From NCBI GenBank assembly GCA_964397155.1, contig CAYNHB010000001.1, forward strand, positions 2,093 through 66,092: 64,000 bases of DNA. Reading direction: 5' to 3'. Position 1 is the first letter of the stretch. Each line of letters begins with the position of its first letter. The translations under genes and the position numbers were made by a program. The DNA comes from an uncultured Candidatus Saccharibacteria bacterium (lineage in GTDB: Bacteria > Patescibacteriota > Minisyncoccia > Minisyncoccales > Staskawiczbacteraceae). This document shows positions 551-54,548 of the stretch, in pieces. The notes under the pieces were generated by a model. That model was not told the origin of the DNA. It worked only from the letters and a program-made list of their open reading frames with translations, and searched no databases.

Positions 551-552
551 AA

Positions 553-575
553 AAATCCCCTTACGGGGGAGCTGC
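553..575 (+). terminator. Weak hairpin after the DUF3800 stop (tcccc-ttac-gggga)
   Basis: Short GC stem directly after the TAA. No clean U-run follows, so support is weak. Confidence 0.25.
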
Positions 576-745
576 CCTATAGATTTGTGATGTCTAGACT
601 ATTGCCAACCGATGGATGGGAACATCTAGAACAATCCATAAAGGACTTATGCTCAATTTCAATATAACACAAAAATGGATGTCAATCAAGAGTTATTCAC
701 ATACGCATGTCTAACCATTAGCAAGCAAATAAAAAACAAAAAATT

Positions 746-1063
746 ATGGAGTATTTATATTTTGTTTTAATTTTATTAGTTTTGATGGTTGCTGGTTTGG
801 TTTTGTGGGTTTGGTATTTGTCTAAAAGAAAAGAAGAGGGTGGGCTGGAGAAATACAATGAAGAAGTACAGGCAAAGAAAAAAGAGGCGCAAAGCAAGAT
901 TATGGCTCTTTTTGGCAGTAAAGACAAAATTTGCAACAGCGATGTCCAAAAACTGCTGGGCATTTCTCAATCTTCAGCAACAAGATATTTAGATGACCTG
1001 GAGGCAGAAGGCAAAATTAAGCAGATTGGCAAAATAGGCCAAAGCGTGTTTTACACAAAGTAA
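746..1063 (+). CDS. Small membrane-anchored winged-helix (wHTH) DNA-binding protein
   Basis: N-terminal hydrophobic helix (YFVLILLVLMVAGLVLWVWYL), a charged linker, and a C-terminal wHTH-like segment (SSATRYLDDLEAEGKIKQ). Paralogous to the ORF at 63402..63725. Confidence 0.6.
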   Translation: MEYLYFVLILLVLMVAGLVLWVWYLSKRKEEGGLEKYNEEVQAKKKEAQSKIMALFGSKDKICNSDVQKLLGISQSSATRYLDDLEAEGKIKQIGKIGQSVFYTK

Positions 1064-1105
1064 GTTGAATGGCCCAAGCACTGTCTGGGCCATTCGCAGG
1101 AAGCT

Positions 1106-1132
1106 AAAAACGCCCCGCAGCGGGGCGTTTTT
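1106..1132. terminator. Bidirectional rho-independent terminator
   Basis: aaaaa-CGCCCCG-cag-CGGGGCG-ttttt is a perfect 7-bp GC stem flanked by an A-run and a T-run. It sits between the convergent genes 746..1063 (+) and mtnP (-). A second inverted repeat, atggccca...tgggccat, lies at 1068-1092. Confidence 0.8.
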
Positions 1133-1889
1133 AGCTTATTTTGGGGAGAGTTTCAAGTATCAATTTTTTAACATTACCTACGTTTTTGCCGAATATTTCA
1201 AAAACTTCTTTCCAAGTAACAGCGCTTTCTTCTTCCAGCCAGCTGTCATAGTCAGTTGACATTGCTATTGCAGAATACTCTATTCCTGCTTCGTTTGCCA
1301 GAATACACTCTGGGGCTACAGACATATTAATTACATCAGCCCCCCAAATGCGAAACATTTTTGACTCTGCTTTTGTAGAAAAGCGTGGGCCTTCTATTGT
1401 GATTACCGTGCCATTTGGGTGGAATTTAAGATTCAAATTTTTTGCGCTTTCAATTAAAATTTGTCTTAACTCGTTTGAAAAAGGTTCTGGCATGGCAGTA
1501 TGTTTTGCGTTTTCAGATCCTCCGGCAAACTCCTCATAATAAGTTATTTTTCTGTGCCTTGTAAAATCAATAAACTGGTCGAGTATAACAAGGTCGCCCC
1601 TTTCAATTTCTTTTTTTAAACTGCCGCAAGCAGTGCTGGCAATAATATGTTTTACTCCAAGCTCTTTTAGGGCTAAAATATTTGCCCTGAAATTCACTTG
1701 AGTGGGCGGAATGGTATGGCGCTTGCCGTGCCTTGCCAAAAAAGCAATTTTTTTACCTTTTAATTCTCCAATTTTTAAAGCAGAGCTTGGCTGGCCATAT
1801 CGCGTGTTAACCTCCAAGTCTTTTACATTTTTCAAATCCTCCATATCATAAAGCCCTGAACCGCCAATTATTCCTATATCAGCTTTCAT
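1131..1889 (-). CDS. mtnP: S-methyl-5'-thioadenosine phosphorylase (purine nucleoside phosphorylase family 2)
   Basis: N-terminal IGIIGGSGLY motif and overall MTAP-like sequence over 252 aa. Overlaps the apt gene by 11 nt. Confidence 0.85.
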   Translation of the reverse strand: MKADIGIIGGSGLYDMEDLKNVKDLEVNTRYGQPSSALKIGELKGKKIAFLARHGKRHTIPPTQVNFRANILALKELGVKHIIASTACGSLKKEIERGDLVILDQFIDFTRHRKITYYEEFAGGSENAKHTAMPEPFSNELRQILIESAKNLNLKFHPNGTVITIEGPRFSTKAESKMFRIWGADVINMSVAPECILANEAGIEYSAIAMSTDYDSWLEEESAVTWKEVFEIFGKNVGNVKKLILETLPKIS

Positions 1890-2409
1890 ATTTTATTAAA
1901 GAATTTATATTTTGCTCTTTTAATTGTTCTTTGCCTTTTAAAAAAACTAATTCAATTAAAAATTCAACTCCAATTAATTTGCCTTTTAACTCCTTTACTA
2001 AATCAACAGCTGCTTTCATTGTACCTCCTGTAGCTAAAACATCATCAACCAGCAAAACTTTTTCACCCGGCAAAATTGAATCTTGATGCATTTCAATTGT
2101 GTTTGACCCGTATTCTAAAGCATAATCCCTTGAAACTGTTTTTGAAGGCAGTTTGCCTTTTTTGCGCACAATGGCAATGCCTGTTTTTAATTTGTATGCC
2201 ATGGCAGAAGCCAGCAAAAATCCGCGGGCATCAATGCCGATTATTTTGTCTATATCTTGTGCTTCATAGGGGTGGCACAATTCATCAATCATTATAGAAA
2301 AAATTTCTTTGTCTTCCAGCAAAGGGGTTATGTCTTTAAAATTAACCCCTGGCTTTGGCCAGTCCGGAACTTCCCTTATTTTTGATTTGAAAAGTTGTTG
2401 GATGTTCAT
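1879..2409 (-). CDS. apt: Adenine phosphoribosyltransferase
   Basis: PRTase fold with the PRPP-binding motif VLLVDDVLATGGT and the APRT-typical N-terminus (VPDWPKPGVNFKDITPLL). 176 aa. Confidence 0.9.
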   Translation of the reverse strand: MNIQQLFKSKIREVPDWPKPGVNFKDITPLLEDKEIFSIMIDELCHPYEAQDIDKIIGIDARGFLLASAMAYKLKTGIAIVRKKGKLPSKTVSRDYALEYGSNTIEMHQDSILPGEKVLLVDDVLATGGTMKAAVDLVKELKGKLIGVEFLIELVFLKGKEQLKEQNINSLIKYES

Positions 2410-4949
2410 TCTGAATAGTTTTTAATATATTTTTCCGCGTAATCCTGACCCAAAGAGCTTATAAAGTTTGCTACATGGGTATGGATGCTCGGATCTAATT
2501 TTTCTGCAAGCACAGCTTCGTAATAGGCCTTTTCGTATTCACCTAATTCTTTGCAAACGCCAGCCAAACTAAAATGGTAGGCGCCTTCATTTGGGTATCT
2601 TGCCACTGCTTGCTCATAAAGCGACTTGGTTATTAAATATTCTTGCCTGGCTTTTTCGGTTTCTCCTATTTGGTTATACACAAAAGCTAGGGAAGAATGA
2701 AGAGTCGGGTCATTAGGGCTCAACCCAAGCAGTTGTTTTAAAAATTCTGGCACCTCTTTATTTTCCGGCTGTAACTCAAAAACTTTAATAGCCTCTTTGG
2801 CGGCTTTGCTATATTCTCCTATTTGCCTGTATAAATAAGCTAAAACAGCGCGGTAGCCGGCATTATTGACGTCATTAAAAACAGTTGCCATATAATAGGC
2901 GTCGGCGGCGTCTTTGTAATTTTTTTGGCTTATATAAGCAACCCCGAGCTGTATATAAGGATAAGAGGTATCAGTTTTTTGTTTTGCCTCCTCAACATGT
3001 TTTTTGCCGTTTTCCTGGTCTCCTAAAAACACTTCAGCTACGCCCAAGTACCAATAGCAGTAGCCGTTGCTGTCGTCTATTTTTATGCAGTCATTTGCTG
3101 TTTGCTTCATTGCCTGGTAATCCTCGGCCAATAAATGGCTTTTTTCCATTTCTATTAAAATTTCCTGCCGTTTTGGGCTTGATTCCAGAGCTTTATTAAG
3201 ATAGCCCACTGCCTCGGAAGTAAGCTCTTTCTTGCTTTTGGCATCTTCTTTTTGCGCCGCCAAAACATTTGTGAATGCTCCCAGGGCAATCCATGTTCTG
3301 GTGTATCTGGGCTGGATAACAGATGCTGGCTTTAAGGCATTAACTCCAGACAAAGCATATTCTTCCTGTTTTTCCGGAAATGCTGAAATGCATTTTTTAA
3401 TAGAGTCAAAATATTTTAATCCTGCGTAAGATTTTAAAATTCCTGAATTTGGCCAAGTTTTGCCCATTATATCCAGGGCTTTTTGGCATTTTCTGGCGCT
3501 GATCAGATTGTCGGCATAAACAATATTATTGTTGAGGTATAAGGGCTTTATGTTCCAAAACCAGATAAAAAAGATTAAAAAAATTAAAAGAGGAATATAA
3601 ACAAACTTGTTTTTTCCGGCATTTGTTTTAGGCGGCAAAATGACTATTTTTTCAGCTGGCAAGGAGAGCAGGTAAAAGGAGCAGCCGATAAAAAAGAAGG
3701 AAATAAGATAAGTTGAAAAATCGTCAAAATTAAAGAAAAGCGCCACAAGGTACGCAACAAACATAGTTTGAAGCCCGTGAGCCAGGTAAGTATTCGGGCT
3801 GTCGCCAGTCTGCCTTTTAAATTTCTGGAGTTGCCACAAAAGCAATATCCAAAAAGAAACATAAAACAAAAGGGCTAATATGCCTGAATTGACCCATATT
3901 TCCAAAAACGCATTGTGGGGCCTGTCCCACCACAGATTTTTGACATCTTTAATTGTGGGGTCGTAGTATTTTTCAAAGCCCATATAAAAATTTTCAGGGC
4001 CCCAGCCCAAGATAGGTTTTTCTTTTATTGCCTTGAGAGTGATTTTCCATGCTGAAAAGCGGGTTCCGGCTAAATCGGAAAGCACCCCTTTAACAGACAG
4101 CCTTTGGGCAGTTAATTTTAGTAAAGTATTTTTCTCTGTAATTTGAGGAAAAAAGTTAAAAAGCAAAACAGCCAGAAAAGCCAGCAAGAGTATGGAAGCG
4201 CTGATTGTTTTGAGAGATTTAAATTTTTTAGGATAAAAAAAGAAGAAAAAGAAAAACCCGGCTAAAAGACCAAGGTAAGTGGCGCGGGAGCCGGTGATCA
4301 AAATAGTAAAAATAAAAAGCAGAAAAAGAAGGCCGTAAATTATTTTTTTCTTTTTGATTTTTTCCTTGACAAACAAGGTAAAAGATAAAAAAACCAGAAA
4401 AATTGTATAAATTGCCAGAAAAGTAGCGTTGCCCAAAAAAGAAGGCGTGCCCCCGCTTTCAAAAGAAATAAAAACATTTTTTAAGATATTAAAATACTGG
4501 ACAATAGCCAGCAAAGAACATAAAATTCCTACTAAAAACAGCGAACTAAACAATTTTTGCCAGATGTTTTCATTGGTGAAAAGAGCTAAGGCAACAGTAA
4601 AAACAAAGAAAAACAATAAATTAAGCGCGCCTCCGCCTCTTGAGGGAGAGCCGAAGATGCTGAAATTTATATCCTGTGAAAATATAACAGACAGGATTAT
4701 AACCGCAAAAAAAGCCGACAAGGCCAGAAAGGATAGATATTTAGAAAATTCCCACTTAGGAACAGAAAAAGAAAACTCTTTTTTATAGAAAAATTTATAA
4801 AGCAGAAAACAAGCCAAAACGGTTAAAATTGTCCTGAATAAAATCGTCCGGCTCCATGTAGCTGGCTGGAATGTTGGGGGGAGAAGAACTATCGGCATAA
4901 ACACCAAAAGGCAAAGCCCCCATAATAAAAATTTTGAATTGCTTTCCAT
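2406..4949 (-). CDS. O-antigen ligase-like (Wzy_C) polytopic membrane protein fused to C-terminal TPR repeats
   Basis: The N-terminal two-thirds has more than 10 predicted TM helices, including a GSRATYLGLLAGFF segment typical of the Wzy_C/O-antigen-ligase domain. The C-terminal ~350 aa has repeated TPR-like A/Y-rich helical pairs. Confidence 0.65.
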   Translation of the reverse strand: MESNSKFLLWGLCLLVFMPIVLLPPTFQPATWSRTILFRTILTVLACFLLYKFFYKKEFSFSVPKWEFSKYLSFLALSAFFAVIILSVIFSQDINFSIFGSPSRGGGALNLLFFFVFTVALALFTNENIWQKLFSSLFLVGILCSLLAIVQYFNILKNVFISFESGGTPSFLGNATFLAIYTIFLVFLSFTLFVKEKIKKKKIIYGLLFLLFIFTILITGSRATYLGLLAGFFFFFFFYPKKFKSLKTISASILLLAFLAVLLFNFFPQITEKNTLLKLTAQRLSVKGVLSDLAGTRFSAWKITLKAIKEKPILGWGPENFYMGFEKYYDPTIKDVKNLWWDRPHNAFLEIWVNSGILALLFYVSFWILLLWQLQKFKRQTGDSPNTYLAHGLQTMFVAYLVALFFNFDDFSTYLISFFFIGCSFYLLSLPAEKIVILPPKTNAGKNKFVYIPLLIFLIFFIWFWNIKPLYLNNNIVYADNLISARKCQKALDIMGKTWPNSGILKSYAGLKYFDSIKKCISAFPEKQEEYALSGVNALKPASVIQPRYTRTWIALGAFTNVLAAQKEDAKSKKELTSEAVGYLNKALESSPKRQEILIEMEKSHLLAEDYQAMKQTANDCIKIDDSNGYCYWYLGVAEVFLGDQENGKKHVEEAKQKTDTSYPYIQLGVAYISQKNYKDAADAYYMATVFNDVNNAGYRAVLAYLYRQIGEYSKAAKEAIKVFELQPENKEVPEFLKQLLGLSPNDPTLHSSLAFVYNQIGETEKARQEYLITKSLYEQAVARYPNEGAYHFSLAGVCKELGEYEKAYYEAVLAEKLDPSIHTHVANFISSLGQDYAEKYIKNYSE

Positions 4950-4973: not shown

Positions 4974-5417
4974 ATGCAAAAAGCAAGAAAAAAAATAGTG
5001 ATAACATCCGGTTATTGGAACCCTGTGCACGTAGGCCACATAAATTTATTTAAAGGAGCTAAGGAGATAGGAGATGTCTTAGTTGTAATTATGAACAACG
5101 ACGAGCAGGTGGAATTAAAAGGCGGCGCTATTTTTATGCCAGCAAAAGAAAGAATAGAAATAATAAAAGCCATAAAATATGTTGATGAAGTTTTTTTATC
5201 TGTTGACAGTGACAGTTCTGTTTGCAAGAGCTTAAAAATAATTGCAAAAATGCACCCCGGTTGCGAGCTTTTTTTTGCAAACGGCGGGGATAGGCACCAT
5301 GGCAATATTCCCGAAACAGGGGTTTGCGAAGAATTGAATATAAGGGTGGTAGATGGAGTCGGGGGAGAGAAAGTGCAAAGCTCATCATGGATGCTGAATA
5401 AAATTAAGAATTCTTAA
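4974..5417 (+). CDS. Nucleotidyltransferase of the cytidylyltransferase-like superfamily (HldE domain II / TagD-like)
   Basis: HxGH motif (NPVHVGHINL) near the N-terminus and the small ~150 aa size typical of the CTP_transf_like fold. Confidence 0.65.
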   Translation: MQKARKKIVITSGYWNPVHVGHINLFKGAKEIGDVLVVIMNNDEQVELKGGAIFMPAKERIEIIKAIKYVDEVFLSVDSDSSVCKSLKIIAKMHPGCELFFANGGDRHHGNIPETGVCEELNIRVVDGVGGEKVQSSSWMLNKIKNS

Positions 5418-5421
5418 ATCA

Positions 5422-6360
5422 ATGGATATAATTGTTGTTTGTCATACAGAATTTGGTTTTACCTCCGGCAAAAAAATAGTTTTTGATAAAAAAGGCCGGC
5501 AGGGCGTTAAAAGCGGGGTTAAAAATTTAATTGAATTAGCAGGCAAATACAAGGCCAAGATAACCTTTACTGTTTGCCCAGAAGTTGTTGATTTTTTTCC
5601 AAAAAATACTTACCATGAGATAGGATTGCATGTCCACCCAGGCTGGGAAAAATTCAGCAAGCCCGGGTTTGAATGGTTTGTAGGAGACCAATATCTTAAA
5701 GAACATTGCCGTCAGTCTTCGTTTTCCAGCGCCTTGTCAGACCACCCTTATTCAGAGCAGTTTGAGATGATAAAAATAGGCAAGGAGTATCTTAAAAATA
5801 GATTAGGCGTTGAATCAAAAGTTTTTGTTGCCGGCCGCGGCTCTGTAAACGATGATACTATAAAGGCGCTGGTGGAAAATGGATTTAGCCACGATTGTTC
5901 AGCCTTAGCAAACAAAAAATTAGCTTATTTGGATTGGTCAAGATTGCCCAGGATTTGCATGCCCTATCACCCCGATGCAGGAGATTATCAAAAAAAAGGG
6001 GACTTGCCTATTTTGATTGTTCCTGCTGCCCAAGTGATATACGGAAGATCTATTGCCCCAGAGAGTGTTCCTAATTTTGGTTTTTCTTGGTTTAAGGCTT
6101 GTTTTTTAGAGTATTACAGGCAAAAGGCGCCTTTATTTCATATTTTCACTCATTCGCCGACAATGACCAGCCCTTATTATTTATCTGTGATGGATAGTTT
6201 TTTTTCTTTTATCTCAAAGTATGATAATATAAATTTTAAATTTGCTTCACAAATTAAAGAATACCCGGATGCGAATTATAAGACATATTTATGGTCTTAT
6301 TTATTTTCTCCCAATAAAGAAATCGCAAAAACAATTCTTAAGAAATTCAAGGGATTATGA
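5422..6360 (+). CDS. Conserved hypothetical enzyme, possibly polysaccharide-deacetylase or glycoside-hydrolase-like
   Basis: 312-aa soluble protein with His-rich candidate metal-binding segments (VVCHTEFG, HEIGLHVHPGW). I recognise no definitive family motif, so the functional call is weak. The existence of the ORF is solid and its stop overlaps the next start. Confidence 0.35.
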   Translation: MDIIVVCHTEFGFTSGKKIVFDKKGRQGVKSGVKNLIELAGKYKAKITFTVCPEVVDFFPKNTYHEIGLHVHPGWEKFSKPGFEWFVGDQYLKEHCRQSSFSSALSDHPYSEQFEMIKIGKEYLKNRLGVESKVFVAGRGSVNDDTIKALVENGFSHDCSALANKKLAYLDWSRLPRICMPYHPDAGDYQKKGDLPILIVPAAQVIYGRSIAPESVPNFGFSWFKACFLEYYRQKAPLFHIFTHSPTMTSPYYLSVMDSFFSFISKYDNINFKFASQIKEYPDANYKTYLWSYLFSPNKEIAKTILKKFKGL

Positions 6361-8018
6361 AAAAAGAATACAAATCAATTTTTCTTGTAAAACTTCCTCT
6401 GTGTTCTCATCCTGACTCCGAAGACAGCGATAGTTTTAGAACCAAAAACCCGTTTAGGCCGGACCCTTCTTTGGCTTTACCGGCATTGTGCGCTTTTATA
6501 GAAAGATACAAAACTTATGATTATAAAATAAAAGCCGTAGATTTAAACCTAGAGGCTTATACTAAACCCGGAACCCCGGTAGATCCGTCTGTTTTCCCCG
6601 GATTGTTAGAGAAAACTATTAAAAACAACGATTATGATGTTTTATCTATATCAATAATGTTTGTTTTTAATGTAAAGTGGGTTGATGATATTGTAAAATT
6701 ATCAAGAAAATTTCATCCTGAGGCAAAAATAATTATCGGTGGCGGATATCCTACGCTTTTTCCTGATAGATGTTTAGCAAAACACGATATTGATAACGCG
6801 ATAATAGGGGAAGGAGAAGCTACTTTTTTGCATATTATTAATAAATATAATAATCATCAAGATCCTGAGTTTGATAAAAAATTTCCTCATGGGTCATATG
6901 CGGCAAAAAATGAAAAAGGAGAAATTAATATTATCGAAGGAAAGAACAGCTTTATTGATCTAGCTAATTTGCCAGTTCCGGCTTGGGATTATATAAATAT
7001 AGAAAAATATTTTGAGAAGAGCGGGGAAAGCACACTGCCAATTGAAGGGAGCAGAGGATGCCCGTATCGTTGTTATTATTGTACCAGCTTCCTTTTTTGC
7101 GGGCCAAGGATTCGCTATAAGCCAGTTGATAATTTAATAAAAGAGATATTAGAGATAAAAAAAAGATACAAGGGTGTAAAAACTTTGCGTTTTGTAGATG
7201 ATAATCTTTCTTTTTCTAAAGACTGGATCAAGGATTTATTGAATAGAATAATAGATATGAAATTGCCGTTAAAATTAGAGATTCAAAACTTTTCAGTCAA
7301 GCATTTAGACGAAGAAATAGTAAGCTTATTAGTTAAAGCTAATATGAAGACATTTACTCTAGCTATTGAGTCAGGTTCTCCTGAAATACAAAAACGCATT
7401 AACAAGAACTTAAACCTTGATATGGTAAGAGGAGTAGTAAAAATGATAAAATCTCATGGTGTTCATCTCCATCTTTGCTGGATGGTAGGCTTTCCAAATG
7501 AAACATTGGATCAGATTAATGAAACTTTTGCTTTCGCCCGCGAATTAAAAGCTAACTCAAACCAATTTGTTACAGTTTTACCGTATCCTGGAACGCCGAT
7601 GTTTAATGAGGCAAAGAGAGACAATTTACTAGTTTTTTCCGAAGACAATTTAGATAAGTTTGATAATAGGAGATGTGACTATTTAAAATCAGATCAATGG
7701 AATTATGATCAGCTTCAGAAAATTATATATGATGCCAATATTGAAATGAATTTTCTTAAAAATCCTTCTCTTGAAACTGCTGAAGGGCGAGACCGCCTCT
7801 TAGAGTTTTTTCAGCCCCTTTTATTGGCGATACCAGAACACGTTGTTTTGCATTTAGTTGTTGGATATATTCACAAGAAGAAAGAGAATTATTCTGAATC
7901 TGAAAAGCATTACAATACAGCCAAAGAGCTTTTAAAAGACAAAAAGCTTTCTGAAACTTTTACTAAATATTTATCTTGGGATAACCTAGTTATACGAGAT
8001 TTTAACGCATGGCTATAA
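6357..8018 (+). CDS. B12-binding (class B) radical SAM enzyme
   Basis: The Cx3Cx2C motif GCPYRCYYC follows an N-terminal Rossmann-like cobalamin-binding region. 553 aa. Confidence 0.8.
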   Translation: MKKEYKSIFLVKLPLCSHPDSEDSDSFRTKNPFRPDPSLALPALCAFIERYKTYDYKIKAVDLNLEAYTKPGTPVDPSVFPGLLEKTIKNNDYDVLSISIMFVFNVKWVDDIVKLSRKFHPEAKIIIGGGYPTLFPDRCLAKHDIDNAIIGEGEATFLHIINKYNNHQDPEFDKKFPHGSYAAKNEKGEINIIEGKNSFIDLANLPVPAWDYINIEKYFEKSGESTLPIEGSRGCPYRCYYCTSFLFCGPRIRYKPVDNLIKEILEIKKRYKGVKTLRFVDDNLSFSKDWIKDLLNRIIDMKLPLKLEIQNFSVKHLDEEIVSLLVKANMKTFTLAIESGSPEIQKRINKNLNLDMVRGVVKMIKSHGVHLHLCWMVGFPNETLDQINETFAFARELKANSNQFVTVLPYPGTPMFNEAKRDNLLVFSEDNLDKFDNRRCDYLKSDQWNYDQLQKIIYDANIEMNFLKNPSLETAEGRDRLLEFFQPLLLAIPEHVVLHLVVGYIHKKKENYSESEKHYNTAKELLKDKKLSETFTKYLSWDNLVIRDFNAWL

Positions 8019-41492: not shown

Positions 41493-41541
41493 AAAAAGCA
41501 CGTTCATTGGTACATACCTTGGTACGTACCAATGAACGTGC
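41491..41541 (-). terminator. Strong hairpin terminator serving the minus-strand GC-rich gene
   Basis: Perfect 16-bp inverted repeat gcacgttcattggtac / gtaccaatgaacgtgc with a 12-nt loop. An A7 run on the + strand becomes a U-run on the minus transcript. Confidence 0.6.
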
Positions 41542-41582: not shown

Positions 41583-42197
41583 TCAGGAATTTTGTAAGAG
41601 CAGTTCGGTGGCGTGGTCGGACCTGAAGATTCCGACCGCCGCTGGTATGATTATCTCCTTGTGGTGCAAGACTGTGTTGCTTGGCAGGTGGTCTATTGGC
41701 CACCAAGAACCCCTTCCTCCTTCGGATTTTTCAAATTCACAGAGGTATATCATTGATTGAAAATGCCCTCGTTTTTCTGTGGTATGGTTGAAGTTGCGGA
41801 CGAACTCGTACCGTTTCAGTCGCGCGTCAAACTCCTCCCTTTTGGCGAGTCGCAGAAAAACATCCTCAATTTCCTCACCAGCTCGCTGAATTGAGCCCGG
41901 GCAATGCCACTGGCCAGGGTAGGCCGTGTCGTGTGTTGAGCGTCGAGTGAGATAGACATTAATAGAAGGGTGCGGGGAGGTGTCGATCTGATGGATAGAT
42001 TTCGCTATGCAGAGCCACACCGCTTCCACAGCGGGCTGGACGACAATCAGAGATATGGCGTTGAAAAGGTTTGTCCCGAGAGGCTTTCTTCCGTCCACCT
42101 TTTCAAGGAGCTCCAGGAGTTGGTCCATCTCTTCATCGGATAACGGTTGTTGGTCGTTTCTGGTCATCAGACACAGTCCTTTTTTCAAATTGGTCAA
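41583..42197 (-). CDS. Nudix-like hydrolase with a divergent Nudix box, in a GC-rich (~52%) segment
   Basis: PGQWHCPGSIQRAGEEIEDVFLRLAKREEF aligns loosely to the Nudix box (GxWxxPGG...E...RE.xEE). The gene is compositionally distinct from its surroundings. Confidence 0.4.
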   Translation of the reverse strand: MTNLKKGLCLMTRNDQQPLSDEEMDQLLELLEKVDGRKPLGTNLFNAISLIVVQPAVEAVWLCIAKSIHQIDTSPHPSINVYLTRRSTHDTAYPGQWHCPGSIQRAGEEIEDVFLRLAKREEFDARLKRYEFVRNFNHTTEKRGHFQSMIYLCEFEKSEGGRGSWWPIDHLPSNTVLHHKEIIIPAAVGIFRSDHATELLLQNS

Positions 42198-42245
42198 ATA
42201 TTGACAAAAAACAAGTCAAAGAAATAATAACAAATAATTGTATAT

Positions 42246-43025
42246 ATGTCAATAGAAAACAAACAGTCAGTAGAGTTGTGGGATAATTATTACAGAGAAG
42301 AAAAAACAAACCCTAAGGTCGGGTTTTTCAGTTCTTATGATATATTTTTACATGACGCTATTTTGGCAAAATATCTGCCGTTTAATAAGAAAAGCAAAGA
42401 AGAGGTTAAGATTTGTGAAATTGGGTCTGGCGACGGAAAGTTATTAAAGAAAATTGCAGATAACTTTAATTATGAACCGTTTGGAATAGAAAATGCCCAA
42501 GAACCGATTAGGCAAGCTAGAGACAGGGGAATAAATATGATTGAAGGAGATGTATTTGATGAAGCTATTTTAGAAAAATATAATGGATATTTTGATGTGG
42601 TTTATTCTTACGGTTTTATAGAACATATTATGCCACCAGAAAAAGCTGTAGAGATTCATTTAAGGCTTTTAAAAAAGGGAGGATATTTCTTTATACAAAT
42701 ACCCCGTTTAAAAGGGTTTAATTATTTACGGTTTAAGATATTCAGGCCCGATCTTTTGCCTCTTCATAATTTAACAATAATGGAAGAAGAGCAGTTAAGG
42801 CGATTTTGCAAAAAAGAAAGTGTTCAAGAGTTGTTTTGTAAAAATTATGGAACATTTAAACTGAGAGTTCCCATGCCCAAGAAAAATATTTTCTGGTTTA
42901 TTCTTAGGGTAGTATATAGTTTAGAATTTATTTTAAATCCTATTTGCAGGATTGTTTTTAAGGATAACGGCTTTGAAACAAGGCTGTTCAGTCCCTGCGT
43001 TATGTTTATAGGAAAAAAAAATTAG
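42246..43025 (+). CDS. Class I SAM-dependent methyltransferase
   Basis: ICEIGSGDGKLL motif I and a downstream acidic motif. Confidence 0.6.
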   Translation: MSIENKQSVELWDNYYREEKTNPKVGFFSSYDIFLHDAILAKYLPFNKKSKEEVKICEIGSGDGKLLKKIADNFNYEPFGIENAQEPIRQARDRGINMIEGDVFDEAILEKYNGYFDVVYSYGFIEHIMPPEKAVEIHLRLLKKGGYFFIQIPRLKGFNYLRFKIFRPDLLPLHNLTIMEEEQLRRFCKKESVQELFCKNYGTFKLRVPMPKKNIFWFILRVVYSLEFILNPICRIVFKDNGFETRLFSPCVMFIGKKN

Positions 43026-48047: not shown

Positions 48048-49209
48048 GAAAAAGATTATTTTTTTAATTCCCACCTTGAGTATGGGTGGTGGCGAGAGGG
48101 TAGTCTCTGAGCTGTCTTTAGGTTTGCCAGATTCGATTGAAAAAATTATTATTTTATTTAAAGATGAAGTTTTTTATAAATATAAAGGAAAATTAATTTC
48201 TCTGAATCTTCCACTTTCCAATGGTTTTTTTCTTAAAATATATTATTTTTTAAAAGGACTTCTCCGCCTTAGAAAAATAGTTAAGGAAAAAAAACCTGAT
48301 TATATAATTGCTCTTGGATTTTCAGCGGATTTAATGGCTATTTTTGCCAGCAATAATGTACTAGTAGGGGCACACAGTTTTTGGACAAAAGCTCATGGGG
48401 GGATAATAGAAAAAAATTTAATTAGAATGTTTTTTAATAAGTCAAAAAAATTTATTTGCGTTTCTAAAGAAGTGGGTGAAGATTTAATAAATAATTTTGG
48501 GATTAAAAGAGAAAAAATTAAAGTTATTCCTAACCCAATAAATATAAATGAAATCCAAAAATTGGCGAATTTTCCCATTAAGGCGGAACATGAGGAAATT
48601 TTTGAAAATCCGGTAATAATTACCATGGGAAGACTTTCTGAAGAAAAAAATCATTATTCTTTAATAAGAGCATTTAAGGAAGTAAAAAATAAGATTAAAA
48701 CAGCAAAACTAGTGATTTTGGGAGACGGGGAAAAGAGAGCATTTTTAGAAGCAACGGTCAAAGAATTTGATCTCAAAAATAATGTGTATTTTTTAGGTCG
48801 CCAAGACAATCCATTTAAATTTTTAATCAAAGCAAAAGTATTTGTTTTATCTTCTCAGCGAGAAGGACTGCCCTGTTCTATTTTAGAGGCAATGGCATGT
48901 GGCCTTCCAATTATATCAGCAGATTGTAAATTGGGGCCAAGAGAAATTTTAGCTCCACAAACTGATGCAAAAAATCAGACTAAAGATATTGAATATGCAG
49001 AGTTTGGAATTTTAACTCCTATTTTTGACAAAAAAGCTGACAAGCCAGCCGATCCCCTGACAAAAAGCGAAAAAAAATTAGCAGAAGCTATGATTAAAAT
49101 ATTAACCGATAAAGAATTGTCAGATACTTTAATTGAAAGATCTAAACAAAGAGTAGTAGATTTTGATACCCCAAAGATTATTAAAAAATGGGATTTTTTA
49201 TTTTATTGA
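48040..49209 (+). CDS. Family 4 (GT-B, group 1) glycosyltransferase
   Basis: ITMGRLSEEKNH ... EGLPCSILEAMACGLPIIS C-terminal GT4 signature. Confidence 0.8.
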   Translation: MVKKKIIFLIPTLSMGGGERVVSELSLGLPDSIEKIIILFKDEVFYKYKGKLISLNLPLSNGFFLKIYYFLKGLLRLRKIVKEKKPDYIIALGFSADLMAIFASNNVLVGAHSFWTKAHGGIIEKNLIRMFFNKSKKFICVSKEVGEDLINNFGIKREKIKVIPNPININEIQKLANFPIKAEHEEIFENPVIITMGRLSEEKNHYSLIRAFKEVKNKIKTAKLVILGDGEKRAFLEATVKEFDLKNNVYFLGRQDNPFKFLIKAKVFVLSSQREGLPCSILEAMACGLPIISADCKLGPREILAPQTDAKNQTKDIEYAEFGILTPIFDKKADKPADPLTKSEKKLAEAMIKILTDKELSDTLIERSKQRVVDFDTPKIIKKWDFLFY

Positions 49210-49210
49210 A

Positions 49211-50254
49211 ATGAAAAAACAATTTAAAATTTTAATAATTCATCCTGGCGGGATTGGGGACTTAATAATGTTTACGCCAGCCCTGCGGGTTTTAAGAGAT
49301 AGTTTTCTTGATTCTAAGATAGATATTTTCGCCGGTTATACGCTAGCTGCAGCCGAAGTTTTACCGAACTGGAAAGGTGTTGAAGTTTATGATTTTGACT
49401 TTCCAAAAAGCAATTTTTTTGGTAGACTTAGATTTATCTATAGATTAAGGAAAGAAAGGTATGATTTAGCCATTGTTGCCAGCGGAGTTGATGCGTTAAA
49501 GGGAAGTTTATTTGCTTTTTTGATTGGAGCGAAAAAAAGGGTCGGGGATTATAGAAAATATAAATGGTTTTATACCCATTCGGTCAAATTAAATGGAAAC
49601 CAGCACAAGACATTAGCTAATTTGGATTTGTTAAAATCTTTGGGTCTAAATGTAAATTTTAAGGACGCGTTATTCTTTGAGATAAGAAATGAAGACAGGC
49701 AGTTTGCTGAAAAATTTATTTTTAAAAATGATTTAAAGAAAAAAGTATTAGTGGGTTTTGCTCCCTGCGTTGGCTTAAAACAGCAATTTAAGCGATGGCC
49801 CAAAGACAATTTTGTTGAATTAGGCAGAAAGATTTTAGATAGCTACACTGATTCCTTTATACTTATTTTTGGTTCTTTTAGCGAGAAAGAGTTTTGTTCA
49901 AAAATAAAGAGTGATTTAGGAAAAAACACCATGGAAATAACTGACTTCTCGTTAAAGCAGGTAGCTGCCCTAATAGACAAATGCAAGGTTTTTGTTGCTT
50001 CTGACTGCGGATTAGGCCATATTGCCACAACCACTAACACGAATTTAATTTCTATATTTGGGCCTACTATTTCAGAAAGAACCGGACCATATATCCATGT
50101 GGCTAAAGTGCAAATAATCAGTGAAAAATGCAATTATCAATACCACGATATTTATAGGGCTAAAAATTATGATGCAACCAGGCAACACCAGTGTTTAATA
50201 AAGATAACTCCAGACAAAGTTTTTAGCAAGGTTAAAGAAATTTTAGTAAAATGA
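49211..50254 (+). CDS. Family 9 glycosyltransferase (heptosyltransferase-like)
   Basis: ILIIHPGGIGDLIMFTPALRVL N-terminal GT9 motif. Start taken at MKKQFK. Confidence 0.7.
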   Translation: MKKQFKILIIHPGGIGDLIMFTPALRVLRDSFLDSKIDIFAGYTLAAAEVLPNWKGVEVYDFDFPKSNFFGRLRFIYRLRKERYDLAIVASGVDALKGSLFAFLIGAKKRVGDYRKYKWFYTHSVKLNGNQHKTLANLDLLKSLGLNVNFKDALFFEIRNEDRQFAEKFIFKNDLKKKVLVGFAPCVGLKQQFKRWPKDNFVELGRKILDSYTDSFILIFGSFSEKEFCSKIKSDLGKNTMEITDFSLKQVAALIDKCKVFVASDCGLGHIATTTNTNLISIFGPTISERTGPYIHVAKVQIISEKCNYQYHDIYRAKNYDATRQHQCLIKITPDKVFSKVKEILVK

Positions 50255-50263
50255 ATAAAAGAT

Positions 50264-50638
50264 ATGATGGATAAAAAAACACCAAAACCATATAAGCCAG
50301 AAAGGCATTTTAAGGGATGGGGGTTTGAAGACTGGACAGCCAACAATAAAGAATATTGCGGTAAATTATTATTTTTTCAAAAAGGAAAAAAATGCAGTTT
50401 TCACTATCACGAGAAAAAACATGAAACATTTTATCTTTTTTCAGGAAAGATGGAAATCAGAATATCTTGGCAGGACGATCTTTCTTCTGCTGTATCTTTT
50501 ATTTTTTTGCCTGGTGATTGCCTTGAAATACCAAGGGGGTTGAGGCACCAAATGACTGCGCTGGAAGATTCAAATCTTTTTGAATTTTCAACTACTCATT
50601 TCGAAGAGGATTCAAAAAGAATTATAAGAGGAGATTAA
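50264..50638 (+). CDS. Small cupin-fold protein
   Basis: 124 aa with the two cupin His/Glu motifs (FHYHEKKHETFYLFSG, LRHQM). Confidence 0.5.
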   Translation: MMDKKTPKPYKPERHFKGWGFEDWTANNKEYCGKLLFFQKGKKCSFHYHEKKHETFYLFSGKMEIRISWQDDLSSAVSFIFLPGDCLEIPRGLRHQMTALEDSNLFEFSTTHFEEDSKRIIRGD

Positions 50639-50641
50639 AAT

Positions 50642-51586
50642 ATGAAAAAACTAGTAGAATTAGTAAACAATTTTAAAGGGAAAAAAATAGGAGTGATTGG
50701 CGATTTAATGCTGGACCATTTTATATGGGGAGATGTTGAGCGCATTTCGCCCGAAGCTCCAATTCCGGTTGTTTTGGCGCACAAGGAAAGTTTTATACCC
50801 GGCGGTGCTGGGAACACTGCCAGCAATATTGCTGCCTTGGGCGGAAAAGTTTTTTTAGTGGGGCTGGCAGGCAAAGATGAAGCTGGCAAAAAACTGATTT
50901 CTGAATTTCAAAAAATAGACGTCGATACCAGCGGAGTTTTAATTTCAAGCCAGAAGCCGACCATCCAAAAAATAAGAATTGTAGCTCGGGGTCAGCAGGT
51001 TGTCAGGGTGGATAAAGAGAATACTGAATACATAAGCAAAGACATTGAAAAAAAATTAATTTCATTTATTTTGCCAAACATAAAAGAGTGGGACGGCATT
51101 GTGGTTTCAGATTATGCCAAGGGAGTGATTACTAAGAATTTTGCCCAAACTTTGGTTAAATTAGCTGTAAAGCATAAAAAGCCGATAATTTGTGACGTAA
51201 AGCCAAAACATGCGCCATATTTTAAAAATGCCACTCTTTTGAGCCCCAACCATAAAGAATGTTTAGAAATTGCTGGAGTAGAAGACGAAAGGCAAGCAGG
51301 CAAGATAATCCAAAAACAATTTAACTGCAGTGTTTTGCTCACCCAGGGAGCGCGAGGAGTTACTTTGTTTGGAAATAAAGAAATAAAACATTTTCCCGCT
51401 ATGGCAAAAGAGGTTTTTGATGTTAGCGGAGCCGGAGACACAACGGTGGCTGTTGCCACTTTGGCTTTAGCTTCAGGGGCTAACCTTGAGCAGGCCTCAA
51501 TTATAGCTAACCACGCGGCTGGCATTGTCGTGGGTAAGCTAGGAACTGCAGTAGTTTTTCCACAAGAATTAAAACAAAACTTATAA
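50642..51586 (+). CDS. hldE: D-glycero-beta-D-manno-heptose-7-phosphate kinase (HldE domain I, PfkB fold)
   Basis: GVIGDLMLDHFIWGDVERISPEAPIPVV, PGGAGN, and C-terminal DVSGAGDTTVAVA and AGIVVGKLGTAVV match HldE domain I end to end. Confidence 0.85.
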   Translation: MKKLVELVNNFKGKKIGVIGDLMLDHFIWGDVERISPEAPIPVVLAHKESFIPGGAGNTASNIAALGGKVFLVGLAGKDEAGKKLISEFQKIDVDTSGVLISSQKPTIQKIRIVARGQQVVRVDKENTEYISKDIEKKLISFILPNIKEWDGIVVSDYAKGVITKNFAQTLVKLAVKHKKPIICDVKPKHAPYFKNATLLSPNHKECLEIAGVEDERQAGKIIQKQFNCSVLLTQGARGVTLFGNKEIKHFPAMAKEVFDVSGAGDTTVAVATLALASGANLEQASIIANHAAGIVVGKLGTAVVFPQELKQNL

Positions 51587-51590
51587 AATT

Positions 51591-51622
51591 AAAAAAACCC
51601 ATCAGCTTTCGCGATGGGTTTG
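51591..51622. terminator. Bidirectional rho-independent terminator
   Basis: aaaaaaa-cccatc-agctttcgc-gatggg-ttt between the convergent hldE kinase (+) and the GC-rich Nudix gene (-). Confidence 0.7.
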
Positions 51623-51645
51623 GCAAATCATGCACACTTGGACTT

Positions 51646-52383
51646 TTAGGCCAAACTGGCCCATCCGCCACACAGCTCCAGTCCGAGTTGGCAGAGCGAA
51701 GCGAGCGCAAGCCACTCTAAAAGGATGCCTTTTTTGCCTTGTTCTATCAGGAAGTTTTCCGCTTCCAGTAGAGGCACAAGGGCGCATTTTTCCGGAATTA
51801 CGCCCTCTTTTCTAGGTGGTGCCGGTTTTTTTGTTACAAGAGTTGTACAGGTGGAGTAAAACTCCACATTGCCTCCTGCATCATTGGCTGCATAGACGCT
51901 AGTCAGCAAAGGCGCCGTCATCGCAATATCTGTGGCACTGCAACCATATTCTTCTGTAGCTTCTCGAAGACCATTGGCAATGGCCTGTTCATCAACCGCA
52001 TCAGCCACGCCTCCGGGAATCTCTAGTTGGTAATTTTCAGTTAATCCTTCAAGCTCCGGCGATTTCGGATACGTGCAGGGCTTGTCTGATGCCAAGAAAA
52101 ATACCCAGAGATTCTGCAGTCCGATTCTACGGAGATTCTGCAGGAAGCTAGGGAGGTCGCTACTATTTTTTGCCTGCGATTCATCCCATAACTCTTCTTC
52201 AACATACAGAACCATACACTTGGCCGACCTAAAGTGACCATTCTTTCGGGCTACAACTTCTCGATAACCGCTTGGGGTGCGAAACCCATGAAGGTGCAAC
52301 CACTTGCCTTTGCCGATCAGGTTCTTATGGTCGAAAACTATGGTTTTTCTCATGGTTTCTCTCCAAGATTTAGTCAAATTCAA
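51646..52383 (-). CDS. Nudix hydrolase (ADP-sugar pyrophosphatase-like) in a GC-rich (~50%) segment
   Basis: LEIPGGVADAVDEQAIANGLREATEEYG fits the Nudix box (GG...E...REUxEExG with one extra residue). The minus-strand gene is compositionally distinct. Confidence 0.6.
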   Translation of the reverse strand: MNLTKSWRETMRKTIVFDHKNLIGKGKWLHLHGFRTPSGYREVVARKNGHFRSAKCMVLYVEEELWDESQAKNSSDLPSFLQNLRRIGLQNLWVFFLASDKPCTYPKSPELEGLTENYQLEIPGGVADAVDEQAIANGLREATEEYGCSATDIAMTAPLLTSVYAANDAGGNVEFYSTCTTLVTKKPAPPRKEGVIPEKCALVPLLEAENFLIEQGKKGILLEWLALASLCQLGLELCGGWASLA

Positions 52384-52448
52384 AGGACAGTATCTTTAAT
52401 ATTAAACTATTATTATAACTTTGTCAATATTTAAAAGTCAAAAGATTT

Positions 52449-53480
52449 ATGTTATATTCTGTAATACGCAACAAAAAAGTGAACTCCAAGATTAAACGCC
52501 GAGAACAAATTGTTGGACTTGCAAAAAACCTTAAAAAACAAGGGAAAAAAGTCGTTACCTATAACGGCAGTTTTGATATCTTGCATTTGGGGCACATTAA
52601 ATCTTTAGAAGAGGCAAAACAACAAGGAGATATTTTAATCGTTCTTTTGAACAGCGATAATTCTGTTCGTAATTATAAAGGACCAAATCATCCAATTAAT
52701 TCAGAAGGGCATAGGGCAGAGGTTTTATCTGCTATAGGCCACGTTGATTATGTCGTTAATTTTGATGAAATTAATCCTAAGGAAATTTTGAAAAAAATTA
52801 AGCCAGACATTCACTGTAACGGTTCAGATTGGGGAAAAAATTGCGTTGAAAGAGGCGTTGTTGAAGAAAACGGAGGTAGAATCCATCTTTTAAAATGGCA
52901 ACAAGGTTTTTCAACCAGCGGATTAATACAAAAAACCATAAATACCAATTCCAAGCCAGAAATAAAAGCAGTATTTTTAGACCGCGATGGAACCATAAAT
53001 GTAAACAATCCCGAATATGTCCACAAAATTAATGATTTTAAATTTGTTCCCGGCGCGATTTCAGCTTTGAAAAAATTATCAAAAACTAATTACAAGATTA
53101 TTATTGCAACTAATCAGTCGGGAATTAGCAGAGGATACTTTAGAGAAGATAACTTGAGGCAGCTACATAAATGGATGATTTCAGAATTGAATAAAAGGGG
53201 CGTGAGAATAGATAAAATTTATTATTGTCCTCATGGGCCTAATGATAATTGTTCATGCCGAAAGCCAAAACCAGGCATGTTTTTTCAGGCAGCAAAAGAT
53301 TTTAGTATTAATTTGAGTAAGAGTTGGCTTATCGGCGATGAGCAGAGAGATGTGATCGTTGGCAGAGAGGCAAACATAAAAACCATAAAAATTGGCACTA
53401 GTATGCCTAAAAAGCTAAAGATTGAACCTAACTATTACGCCAAAAATATTTTAGAGGCGGTTGACGTTATTCTTGCATAA
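52449..53480 (+). CDS. Fusion of D-glycero-beta-D-manno-heptose-1-phosphate adenylyltransferase (HldE domain II) with D,D-heptose-1,7-bisphosphate phosphatase (GmhB)
   Basis: The N-terminal 160 aa carry VVTYNGSFDILHLGHIKSLEEAK (HxGH). The C-terminal 180 aa carry AVFLDRDGTIN, NQSGISRGYF, YYCPHGPNDNCSCRKPKPGM and GDEQRD, the GmhB HAD motifs including the Zn-binding Cys loop. Confidence 0.85.
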   Translation: MLYSVIRNKKVNSKIKRREQIVGLAKNLKKQGKKVVTYNGSFDILHLGHIKSLEEAKQQGDILIVLLNSDNSVRNYKGPNHPINSEGHRAEVLSAIGHVDYVVNFDEINPKEILKKIKPDIHCNGSDWGKNCVERGVVEENGGRIHLLKWQQGFSTSGLIQKTINTNSKPEIKAVFLDRDGTINVNNPEYVHKINDFKFVPGAISALKKLSKTNYKIIIATNQSGISRGYFREDNLRQLHKWMISELNKRGVRIDKIYYCPHGPNDNCSCRKPKPGMFFQAAKDFSINLSKSWLIGDEQRDVIVGREANIKTIKIGTSMPKKLKIEPNYYAKNILEAVDVILA

Positions 53481-53648: not shown

Positions 53649-54548
53649 ATGAATAGCAAAAAAATATTAATTACAGGCGGAGCTGGATTTATCGGTTCTA
53701 ATTTAGCTTTGGCGCTTCAGGAAAAATATCCAGAAAACGAATACTTTGTCATCGATAATTTTTCTTCCGGCAATCCCGAAAATCTTATTGGTTTTAAAGG
53801 TAAAATTATTTCTGCCAACATTGCGCAAATAGATTTGAAAAGACATTTTGACAAACTGGATATTATTTTTCATCAGGCAGCCATTACAGACACCACGGTT
53901 TTTGACGAGAAAAAAATGATGTCTAGCAACGTTGATGGTTTTAAAAATGTATTGAATTTCGCCATCGATTGTAAAGCCAAGCTGATTTATGCCTCTTCTG
54001 CAGCAGTCTACGGCCATTCAGAGCCCCCAATGATAGTTGGCAAAAACGAGGTTCCAGCTAATGTATACGGTCTTTCTAAGTTGGTAGCCGACAATATTGC
54101 CCGCGAGAATTTTAATAATCTTCATTTGGTTGGGCTGCGCTATTTTAATGTTTATGGACCGGGAGAAAAGTATAAAGGCAAAATGGCAAGCATGGTTTGG
54201 CAGTTGTATTTGCAGATGAAACAGGGCAGGAGGCCCAGGATTTTCAAATACGGAGAGCAGAAAAGAGATCAGGTTTATATTAAAGATATTGTTAAAGCAA
54301 ATTTACTCGCCTTAGATTGCGAAGAGAGTGGAATTTTTAATGTTGGAATTGGAAAAGCAACTACATTTAATGATATAATCAAAAATATTAATGGCGTCCT
54401 TGGTACAAATTTTGAACCAGAATACATTGATAATCCACATGAACATTATCAAGAACATACTGAAGCCGACTTAACAGAAACAAAGAGCGCTTTGGGATAT
54501 TCAGCAGAATATGATATAAAAAAAGGAATTGAAGATTATTTTAAATAA
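53649..54548 (+). CDS. hldD: ADP-L-glycero-D-manno-heptose 6-epimerase
   Basis: ILITGGAGFIGSNL, YASSAAVYG and especially YFNVYGPGEKYKGKMASMVWQ match HldD/RfaD. Confidence 0.8.
   Translation: MNSKKILITGGAGFIGSNLALALQEKYPENEYFVIDNFSSGNPENLIGFKGKIISANIAQIDLKRHFDKLDIIFHQAAITDTTVFDEKKMMSSNVDGFKNVLNFAIDCKAKLIYASSAAVYGHSEPPMIVGKNEVPANVYGLSKLVADNIARENFNNLHLVGLRYFNVYGPGEKYKGKMASMVWQLYLQMKQGRRPRIFKYGEQKRDQVYIKDIVKANLLALDCEESGIFNVGIGKATTFNDIIKNINGVLGTNFEPEYIDNPHEHYQEHTEADLTETKSALGYSAEYDIKKGIEDYFK

Follow-up and report, generated by a model that had tools for sequence, protein, structure and literature searches.

Why should a single gene of about 50% guanine plus cytosine (GC), read in the direction opposite to its neighbours, stand in the middle of AT-rich genes for ADP-heptose synthesis? 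The question is raised by a 64,000-nucleotide (nt) stretch of contig CAYNHB010000001.1 (assembly GCA_964397155.1), from an uncultured Candidatus Saccharibacteria bacterium; this whole stretch is called here the window. A preliminary description had reported a minus-strand open reading frame (ORF) of ~50% GC with a recognisable Nudix box at 51646..52383, lying between a heptose kinase gene and an adenylyltransferase::GmhB gene. It had taken the product for an enzyme of the ADP-sugar pyrophosphatase type, encoded by a planted gene of foreign composition, and had seen in a second GC-rich island, at 41.6 kb, a sign that Nudix genes are repeatedly inserted into nucleotide-sugar operons. The ORF and its box were confirmed, and matches to NCBIfam models confirmed its position and opposite orientation between the two heptose genes; the insertion found no support. 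The gene, named X2, is best read, with a probability of about 0.6, as coding for a functional but divergent Nudix hydrolase of the nucleoside diphosphate (NDP)-sugar pyrophosphatase class, an old resident of the heptose cluster whose product would cleave ADP-heptose.

A divergent Nudix gene and its place in the heptose cluster

The longer ORF at 51646..52383 (245 amino acids, aa) contains the coding sequence of X2. Translation almost certainly begins at the ATG at position 52353, for a product of 235 aa, because a ribosome binding site (RBS) lies 5 nt upstream and a public gene call (P0001), also of 235 aa, is 100% identical to it. The putative promoter, a predicted element defined by its consensus match alone, sits in an AT-rich divergent spacer of 95 bp. 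The terminator is common, tail to tail, to X2 and the kinase gene, its plus-strand T-run being weak (Table 1). By simple arithmetic, the chance of an open frame of 235 codons in sequence of 50% GC is ~1e-5 per start. The ratio of nonsynonymous to synonymous substitution rates (dN/dS) was 0.09–0.17 against three orthologs, similar to that of the flanking genes, and the indels among X2 homologs comprised whole codons. This purifying selection at the codon level, together with the whole-codon indels and the RBS, promoter and terminator, indicates that X2 is a real gene, functional and monocistronic, with expression signals of its own.

The Nudix box region of X2, PGGVADAVDEQAIANGLREATEEYG (residues 113–137; 51943..52017, minus strand), has an intact E-x7-R-E-U-x-E-E-x-G-U catalytic core (E122-x7-R130-E131-A-T-E134-E135-Y-G137-C). 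A word-seeded search found nine clusters of homologs at 90% identity, and a profile search run exhaustively over 1.84 billion proteins extended the family to 52 clusters at 50% identity, with homologs down to 23% identity in which the motifs are conserved. Among 41 family members, E131 and E135 were invariant and R130, E134, E111, P113 and G114 at least 90% conserved, while E122 was invariant only within the close clade of nine sequences. The family also has invariant motifs of its own (DRP.TY, AANDAG...E and EGI). The Pfam Nudix model PF00293 was matched by five of the nine close members at E ≤ 1 (best E 2.1e-6), the homolog at locus L020 reached 30.7 bits, above the cut-off of 21.1, and a profile built from the 41 sequences matched dozens of Nudix structures at E ~1e-6. 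These searches reveal a genuine family with sharp limits, a rare, unannotated Nudix subfamily found essentially in Patescibacteria. The family profile also matched a protein of 1083 aa (P0041) in 13 stretches, all near profile positions 156–198, which correspond to the AANDAG...E strand region; this looks like a repeat protein of a fragment-like motif or a compositional artefact.

The window protein had no match in the PDB by sequence. Its AlphaFold model (predicted local distance difference test, pLDDT, 69.5; predicted template-modelling score, pTM, 0.70) shows an N-terminal beta-sheet domain (strands at 12–50), a well-predicted insert of ~45 aa (residues ~51–95) made up of two helices and a strand, and the Nudix domain. 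Foldseek returned 79 PDB matches at E ≤ 0.001; the 50 best listed were all Nudix proteins, aligned over 217–258 columns with TM-scores of 0.5–0.63, so that the model has the Nudix alpha/beta/alpha fold. The top match was NUDT5 (E 2.5e-8, ~230 aligned columns), followed by the Klebsiella and E. coli ADP-ribose pyrophosphatases, the E. coli GDP-mannose hydrolase YffH, NUDT14 and Mt-ADPRase. Taken together, the family and the model place X2 in the NDP-sugar pyrophosphatase class, as a Nudix enzyme that is very divergent and predicted to be catalytically competent. The enzyme type proposed in the preliminary description is thus supported as a structural class, by Foldseek and by the family profile.

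The arrangement kinase gene, X2 on the opposite strand, adenylyltransferase-GmhB gene was found in at least four diverged lineages: the window, L001/L002/L017, L004/L005/L006/L022 and L025. Between these lineages X2 was 64–70% identical, the kinase, fusion protein and cupin 71–82%, and the heptosyltransferase 52–67%. Identity at four-fold degenerate sites was 0.41–0.54 for X2 and 0.35–0.61 for the flanking genes. Synonymous sites of X2 were near saturation, the number of synonymous substitutions per synonymous site (dS) between orthologs being 1.2–2.6 by the NG86 method, whose estimates are unreliable at saturation. Only short chance repeats, direct or inverted, flanked X2, and no mobility genes were found beside it. 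No tRNA gene occurs in the window, no relatives of X2 were found on viral or phage contigs, and X2 had no affiliation to a PHROG phage family or a PADLOC defence system. A mobile element was therefore rejected. X2 occupies the same slot in the different lineages, matches its flanks in degree of divergence and bears no signs of mobility. It is therefore a long-established accessory gene of the ADP-heptose cluster, inherited vertically along with it in a small Patescibacteria clade; the planted gene and the recurring insertion of the preliminary description find no support.

More distant family members (38–45% identity) lie in or beside heptose clusters of genomes with quite different GC contents. 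The gene order is IMPase-X-epimerase-...-cupin-kinase-GmhB-HldC-HldD in L007/L019 (a Saccharibacteria metagenome-assembled genome, MAG), HldD / X on the opposite strand / HldC-GmhB-kinase-GmhA-RmlD-transaldolase-transketolase in L020, and GT9-epimerase-IMPase-X...GmhA in L021 (a Kaiserbacteria MAG), where X is the X2 homolog and IMPase an inositol-monophosphatase-family gene. Heptose clusters thus host the family in four of six independent contexts, across genomes of 32–55% GC. Between the window and the mid-GC lineages X2 was 38–45% identical and the heptose genes 32–45%. This conserved home makes the subfamily of ~52 clusters a concrete candidate for an ADP-heptose-degrading enzyme, and offers a handle on how episymbionts with reduced genomes control or recycle an expensive nucleotide sugar.

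A GC surplus shared with a second Nudix-fold family

In bins of 600 nt the window has a GC content of ~0.28–0.42, and only the regions at 41.6–42.2 kb and 51.6–52.4 kb reach ~0.5. The GC content of X2 is 0.489 (0.57, 0.42 and 0.475 at the first, second and third codon positions, GC1, GC2 and GC3), compared with 0.33–0.41 for its neighbours, whose GC3 is 0.27–0.36. Over 63 ORFs of the window GC3 averaged 0.31 (sd 0.06), and the only outliers were X2 and the gene of the other island (open frame 41583..42197, minus strand), named X1 (GC3 0.58). The rare-codon fraction of X2 was 0.060 compared with 0.017 ± 0.008, and the two genes used the rarest codons of the genome 3.5 and 6.6 times more than average. 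This enrichment is compatible with a throttling of expression and equally with a foreign origin. It is general: no codon was exclusive to X1 or X2, and a single rare codon acting in a bldA-like manner was rejected. Computed GC is therefore far from uniform and the composition reported in the preliminary description is indeed anomalous; its meaning as a mark of recent insertion is what fails, since the surplus is old and syntenic.

The orthologs of X2 had a GC3 of 0.47–0.58 and their flanks 0.21–0.45, a surplus of ~0.17–0.21. Over nine lineages with a background of 0.33–0.55 GC, the GC content of the X2-family gene moved only from 0.49 to 0.59; plotted against background GC, its slope was 0.34, compared with 0.76 for control heptose enzymes. 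The amino-acid make-up of the family stays rich in G, A, R and P (GARP) and poor in F, Y, M, I, N and K (FYMINK). The AT-rich promoter spacer does not share the GC-richness of X2.

Several simple causes of the surplus were rejected. Maintenance of GC by mRNA structure does not fit the folding z-scores obtained with synonymous-codon shuffles (−2.6 to −3.2 for the X2 orthologs, −2.9 for the kinase gene, +0.6 for X1). A hidden overlapping constraint does not fit the four-fold-site identities given above, in which X2 falls within the range of its flanks. Nor does orientation alone make a gene GC-rich: at L011 the co-oriented neighbour of the X1 homolog (5346..5885) has a GC content of 0.357, and family members lying on the same strand as their neighbours (L013 in the X1 family, L007 in the X2 family) are still GC-enriched.

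A less likely reading is that X2 came as a cassette from a mid- or high-GC Patescibacteria lineage into the ancestor of the AT-rich clade, and that its GC-richness is a functionless relic, slowly decaying by passive amelioration. The foreign composition proposed in the preliminary description would then be shifted to an earlier time. In genomes of 47–55% GC the homolog lies near the background (gene/background 0.53/0.475 in L018, 0.553/0.516 in L020, 0.586/0.551 in L021 and 0.57/0.537 in L010), and rare codons and a GARP-rich make-up are as expected of a transferred gene. Simulations with an ancestral GC3 of 0.65–0.75 and 0.35–0.55 substitutions per site and branch reproduced the present GC3 and identities, and a donor of at least 55% GC just before the radiation of the clade fits if synonymous divergence per branch is no more than ~0.65. 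When synonymous changes were polarised with four taxa, a slight GC-to-AT excess appeared (57%; 27:20, 48:36, 90:68), which lies between equilibrium and decay. With three taxa, however, 34 changes from GC to AT faced 35 from AT to GC where the amelioration models predict 59–64% GC-to-AT, an outcome of P ~0.015–0.035 under the models that fit; with five taxa the counts were also balanced (14:17). The dS of 1.2–2.6 reaches or exceeds the limit that passive amelioration allows for any plausible donor, the offset over the flanks is about equal in lineages of different background, and X2 and the heptose genes are equally deep in their divergence from the mid-GC lineages. No close, higher-GC, donor-like copy was found among 5.8 billion clusters, the nearest sequences outside the AT-rich clade being at most 45% identical.

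The behaviour of X1 also argues against such a relic. X1 is flanked by a methyltransferase gene and by one for a dehydratase/epimerase of the CDP/dTDP-sugar type. From 4974 to 63725 (~59 kb) GC skew is positive all along, and every gene lies on the plus strand except X1 and X2, the two that are GC-rich and of the Nudix fold. The second GC-rich minus-strand island of the preliminary description was thus confirmed, in a CDP-sugar-type operon. Relatives of X1, 37–50% identical to it, were found in seven other loci, again inside nucleotide-sugar operons, where frequent neighbours were an aminotransferase, a split transketolase or a pair of NTP_transferase and dehydratase. The X1-family gene was the lone opposite-strand gene in seven of the eight contexts, window included. 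Its GC content exceeded that of the flank or locus in all eight, and by at least 0.12 in seven (0.511 against ~0.33 in the window, 0.513 against 0.35 in L011, 0.533 against 0.41 in L013, 0.406 against 0.364 in L015, 0.413 against 0.26–0.30 in L029, 0.504 against 0.34–0.39 in L030, 0.563 against 0.35–0.40 in L031 and 0.529 against 0.35–0.37 in L032). All these contexts are AT-rich, and no GC-rich host was seen for the X1 family. For X1, one ancient transfer whose traces are still fading is hard to sustain.

The two islands do not code for the same kind of Nudix protein. X1 and X2 gave no BLASTP match to each other, hhalign joined only 38 columns at the Nudix box (probability 2.9%), and they were rejected as paralogs. 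In the X1 family the box reads R-L-A-K-x-E instead of REUxEE, so that two catalytic glutamates are lost. The X1 profile best matched 2fml and the Nudix domain of Shewanella NrtR (3gz5/3gz8; E 6.5e-6 to 2e-4), and the best match of the X1 model (pLDDT 83.4) was AraR of B. thetaiotaomicron (E 4.7e-7). X1 thus resembles the non-catalytic Nudix domain of the NrtR/AraR regulators, from which it differs in lacking a winged-helix DNA-binding domain; the proteins of its family have 161–200 aa, with two N-terminal helices and further C-terminal helices.

The parallel surplus in two unrelated Nudix-fold families suggests a persistent, gene-specific pressure. The GC-richness of X2 is a long-standing property of its family, and is more likely to reflect such a pressure than the decay of a transferred relic. 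We put forward only tentatively that the surplus (~+0.15–0.2, at synonymous sites and in rare codons) is actively maintained in both families and that X2 is the first dedicated ADP-heptose pyrophosphatase. Examples of what might maintain it would be the throttling, by rare codons, of antagonists of the operon product, or the protection of an untranslated antisense stretch of the operon transcript. It is equally tentative that the surplus tracks the background of the host and outlasts synonymous saturation. Were it maintained, the two families would provide a small system with clear limits in which to study how pressure on composition acts on particular genes of AT-rich genomes. An anomaly that is syntenic, old and common to a second Nudix-fold family in eight of eight contexts makes X2 a clean counter-example to the routine inference that atypical GC means recent horizontal transfer.

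Proposed function of X2 and the competing readings

The best full-length matches to X2 were NUDT5, the NudF-type ADP-ribose pyrophosphatases (ADPRases) of E. coli and Klebsiella, and the M. tuberculosis ADPRase (E 2.5e-8 to 1e-5, 220–250 aligned columns). This class and X2 share an N-terminal beta-sheet domain followed by the Nudix domain, and the Ex7REUxEExG catalytic core. X2 differs in its low identity (14–18%), in the insert of ~45 aa, in a Gx6E spacing and motifs of its own, in matching no NudF, NudE or NudK equivalog model of NCBIfam, and in its genomic link to ADP-heptose synthesis. A proline ~15–16 residues beyond the Nudix box is commonly taken as a mark of ADP-ribose pyrophosphatases; in X2 the one conserved proline that follows the box is P148, 10 residues past C138, and thus not at the ADPRase-type position. 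E. coli YffH/NudK (a GDP-mannose hydrolase) and NUDT14 (a UDP-glucose pyrophosphatase), which belong to the same structural class and hydrolyse nucleotide sugars, act on another nucleotide (GDP, UDP) and are 11–15% identical to X2. Neither is known to be encoded inside the biosynthetic cluster of its substrate.

A Nudix enzyme that is so encoded is Gmm/WcaH, found inside the colanic-acid and O-antigen clusters for GDP-mannose/fucose, where it degrades the product of the cluster and is thought to tune its pool. Its Nudix box is modified, part of REUxEE being gone, and in E. coli the gene is co-oriented with its operon. Gmm/WcaH/NudD is an analogue of X2 in context only. Gmm cleaves at the sugar C1 and yields GDP and mannose (PMC7729866). 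Unlike Gmm, X2 keeps the full REUxEE and groups structurally with the pyrophosphatases, and no match of X2 to the NudD (Gmm) family was found in NCBIfam.

Because of the fold class, the rarity of the family and the heptose clusters in four of six contexts, the best inference from sequence and model is that X2 hydrolyses ADP-heptose or ADP-sugars. Nudix enzymes acting on nucleotide sugars normally yield a nucleoside monophosphate (NMP) and a sugar phosphate (PMC7729866); the NUDT5/NudF class converts an NDP-sugar into NMP and sugar-1-phosphate, and the same is predicted for X2. X2 would cleave the pyrophosphate bond of ADP-heptose, and probably of other ADP-sugars, to give AMP and sugar-1-phosphate. 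It could in this way trim or recycle the end product of the ADP-L-glycero-beta-D-manno-heptose pathway, as Gmm/WcaH does for GDP-mannose. We propose that X2 is transcribed apart from the pathway because it opposes it: it would have its own promoter and terminator, converging with the kinase gene and diverging from the adenylyltransferase-GmhB gene. It may be speculated that this layout lets the antagonist be expressed either apart from the pathway or in inverse relation to it. X2 is then a rare addition to a known kind of enzyme, in an ADP-heptose context that was not found described in the searchable literature; what stays strange is the persistent GC surplus that it has in common with a Nudix-fold family unrelated to its own.

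Several results weigh against this reading of X2. Its substrate specificity is pure inference, and no paper linking a Nudix enzyme to ADP-heptose hydrolysis was found in the searchable literature. Two of the six family contexts (L018 and L010) have no heptose genes nearby, and the antisense layout is not shared by all, the homologs in L007 and L021 having the same orientation as the genes beside them. As to composition, the four-taxon polarisation and the donor simulation described above weigh against a persistent pressure. The spacing G115-x6-E122 is one residue longer than the canonical Gx5E; this insertion is typical of the window clade, and the distant members P0007–P0009 keep the canonical spacing. 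The structure model is of moderate confidence, with loops at ~116–124 and 153–165 under a pLDDT of 50. In NCBIfam X2 belonged to no family (best model CoA pyrophosphatase, 18.4 bits against a cut-off of 134). The window protein alone gave no Pfam match even at E ≤ 10, and thus stayed below the gathering score of PF00293 (21.1); the preliminary description had named the lack of a significant Nudix hidden Markov model (HMM) hit as the result that would refute it. The Nudix assignment nevertheless stands, because the evidence at the level of the family and of the structure overrides this single-sequence result.

Less probable than a transferred relic, and in our view unlikely, is that X2 is a generic housecleaning enzyme, a NudF/NUDT5-like pyrophosphatase of ADP-ribose or ADP-sugars whose location carries no meaning for the pathway. 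The top structural matches are indeed ADP-ribose/ADP-sugar pyrophosphatases, two contexts have no heptose genes, and Nudix enzymes are often promiscuous (PMC7729866). A location without meaning is difficult to reconcile with four of six independent contexts in or beside heptose clusters, in genomes of 32–55% GC, and with an exact slot kept over dS > 1; the extreme rarity of the family is unlike a general housekeeping enzyme, and no equivalog of NudF, NudE or NudK was matched.

Improbable, too, is a non-catalytic, NrtR/AraR-like Nudix-fold sensor or regulator that binds a nucleotide sugar without cleaving it. The non-canonical Gx6E of the window clade would agree with this, and the companion protein X1 does resemble such a domain; but the catalytic residues R130, E131, E134 and E135 vary little or not at all over 41 diverse members, the 235 aa hold no DNA-binding or other effector domain, and the best structural matches of X2 are active enzymes. 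That the ORF is fortuitous, and the island a non-coding RNA with structure or an element of another sort, can practically be dismissed: in AT-rich genomes an island of high GC often proves to be a structured RNA, and the X2 protein alone has no Pfam match, but neither island had an Rfam match at gathering score in a scan of the whole window, the only match at E ≤ 1 over 51300..52700 was a chance snoRNA match (E 0.4), the protein homologs extend to 23% identity with conserved motifs and a dN/dS of ~0.1, synonymous sites show no excess conservation, and the mRNA folding z-score is like that of a flanking gene.

Neighbouring genes and other features of the window

The features of the two islands, the genes around X2 and the RNA found near the start of the window are collected in Table 1.

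Table 1. Features of the window, with coordinates counted from its first nucleotide
Feature	Coordinates	Strand	Evidence or remarks
X2 coding sequence	51646..52353	-	Divergent Nudix-fold protein of 235 aa, NDP-sugar pyrophosphatase class
X2 RBS, GGAGAG	52359..52364	-	Sequence read; 5 nt before the start codon (ATG, 52353)
X2 putative promoter, sigma-70-like: TTGACT, 18-nt spacer, TATAAT	52412..52441	-	Consensus scan, 11/12 matches
X2 intrinsic terminator: 10-bp stem AAACCCATC...GATGGGTTT, then T-run	51585..51621	-	Terminator scan and sequence
X1, Nudix-fold protein of 194 aa with degenerate box RLAKREE	41583..42167	-	GC 0.511, GC3 0.579; sub-threshold PF00293
X1's own putative promoter	42224..42252		Scan
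X1's own terminator	41498..41541		Scan
GT9 heptosyltransferase, consumer of ADP-heptose	49163..50254	+	PF01075, E 1e-29
Small cupin, 124 aa, adjoining the kinase gene	50264..50638	+	Cupin_2
D-glycero-beta-D-manno-heptose-7-phosphate kinase (HldE domain I / HldA type)	50642..51586	+	TIGR02198, 353.7 > 345; PfkB
Heptose-1-P adenylyltransferase (HldE domain II)::GmhB heptose-1,7-bisphosphate 7-phosphatase fusion	52449..53480	+	NF006506, 199.4 > 178
ADP-glyceromanno-heptose 6-epimerase (HldD)	53649..54548	+	TIGR02197, 310 > 274.6
DUF3800-V RNA (RF02964)	564..661	-	53.3 bits (gathering score 37.4), E 6e-9

The kinase gene is convergent with X2, and the fusion gene, with its CTP_transf_like and HAD domains, is divergent from it. 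The adenylyltransferase part of the fusion scored strongly against TIGR02199 (rfaE_dom_II; 157.7), under the cut-off of 181.5. On contig L002, whose X2 protein is identical to that of L001, the adenylyltransferase::GmhB gene (1992..2967) was predicted in two parts, of 197 and 143 aa, that overlap. The split is either a frameshift, an assembly error or a fusion broken in that population.

No SIS/GmhA homolog was found in the window, although the sedoheptulose-7-P isomerase would be expected at the position of the cupin. The adjacency of cupin and kinase genes was also seen in L001, L004, L025 and L007 (cupin 49% identical in L007), and in L020 and L021 a SIS gene stands in place of the cupin. 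From its sequence context, the cupin is a candidate that may replace GmhA non-orthologously.

An inositol-monophosphatase-family gene lies directly upstream of the X2 homolog in L007/L019 (6018..6896 in L007) and in L021 (8950..9792). In L010 such a gene (326..1213) lies ~2.8 kb upstream of the homolog, with four genes between them; none was found in the AT-rich clade or the window. Its substrate may be either a sugar bisphosphate entering the heptose pathway or the compound that the Nudix enzyme releases.

Directly downstream of the X1 homolog at L011, in the sugar operon, a gene at 6641..7405 codes for a protein of the metallo-beta-lactamase fold that matches the anti-Pycsar Apyc1 family (PF23023). 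In the window, the glycan-cluster part (~42–50 kb) is slightly more AT-rich (0.28–0.32 GC) than the first 25 kb (0.33–0.42). The DUF3800-V RNA of Table 1 was the only Rfam family in the window.

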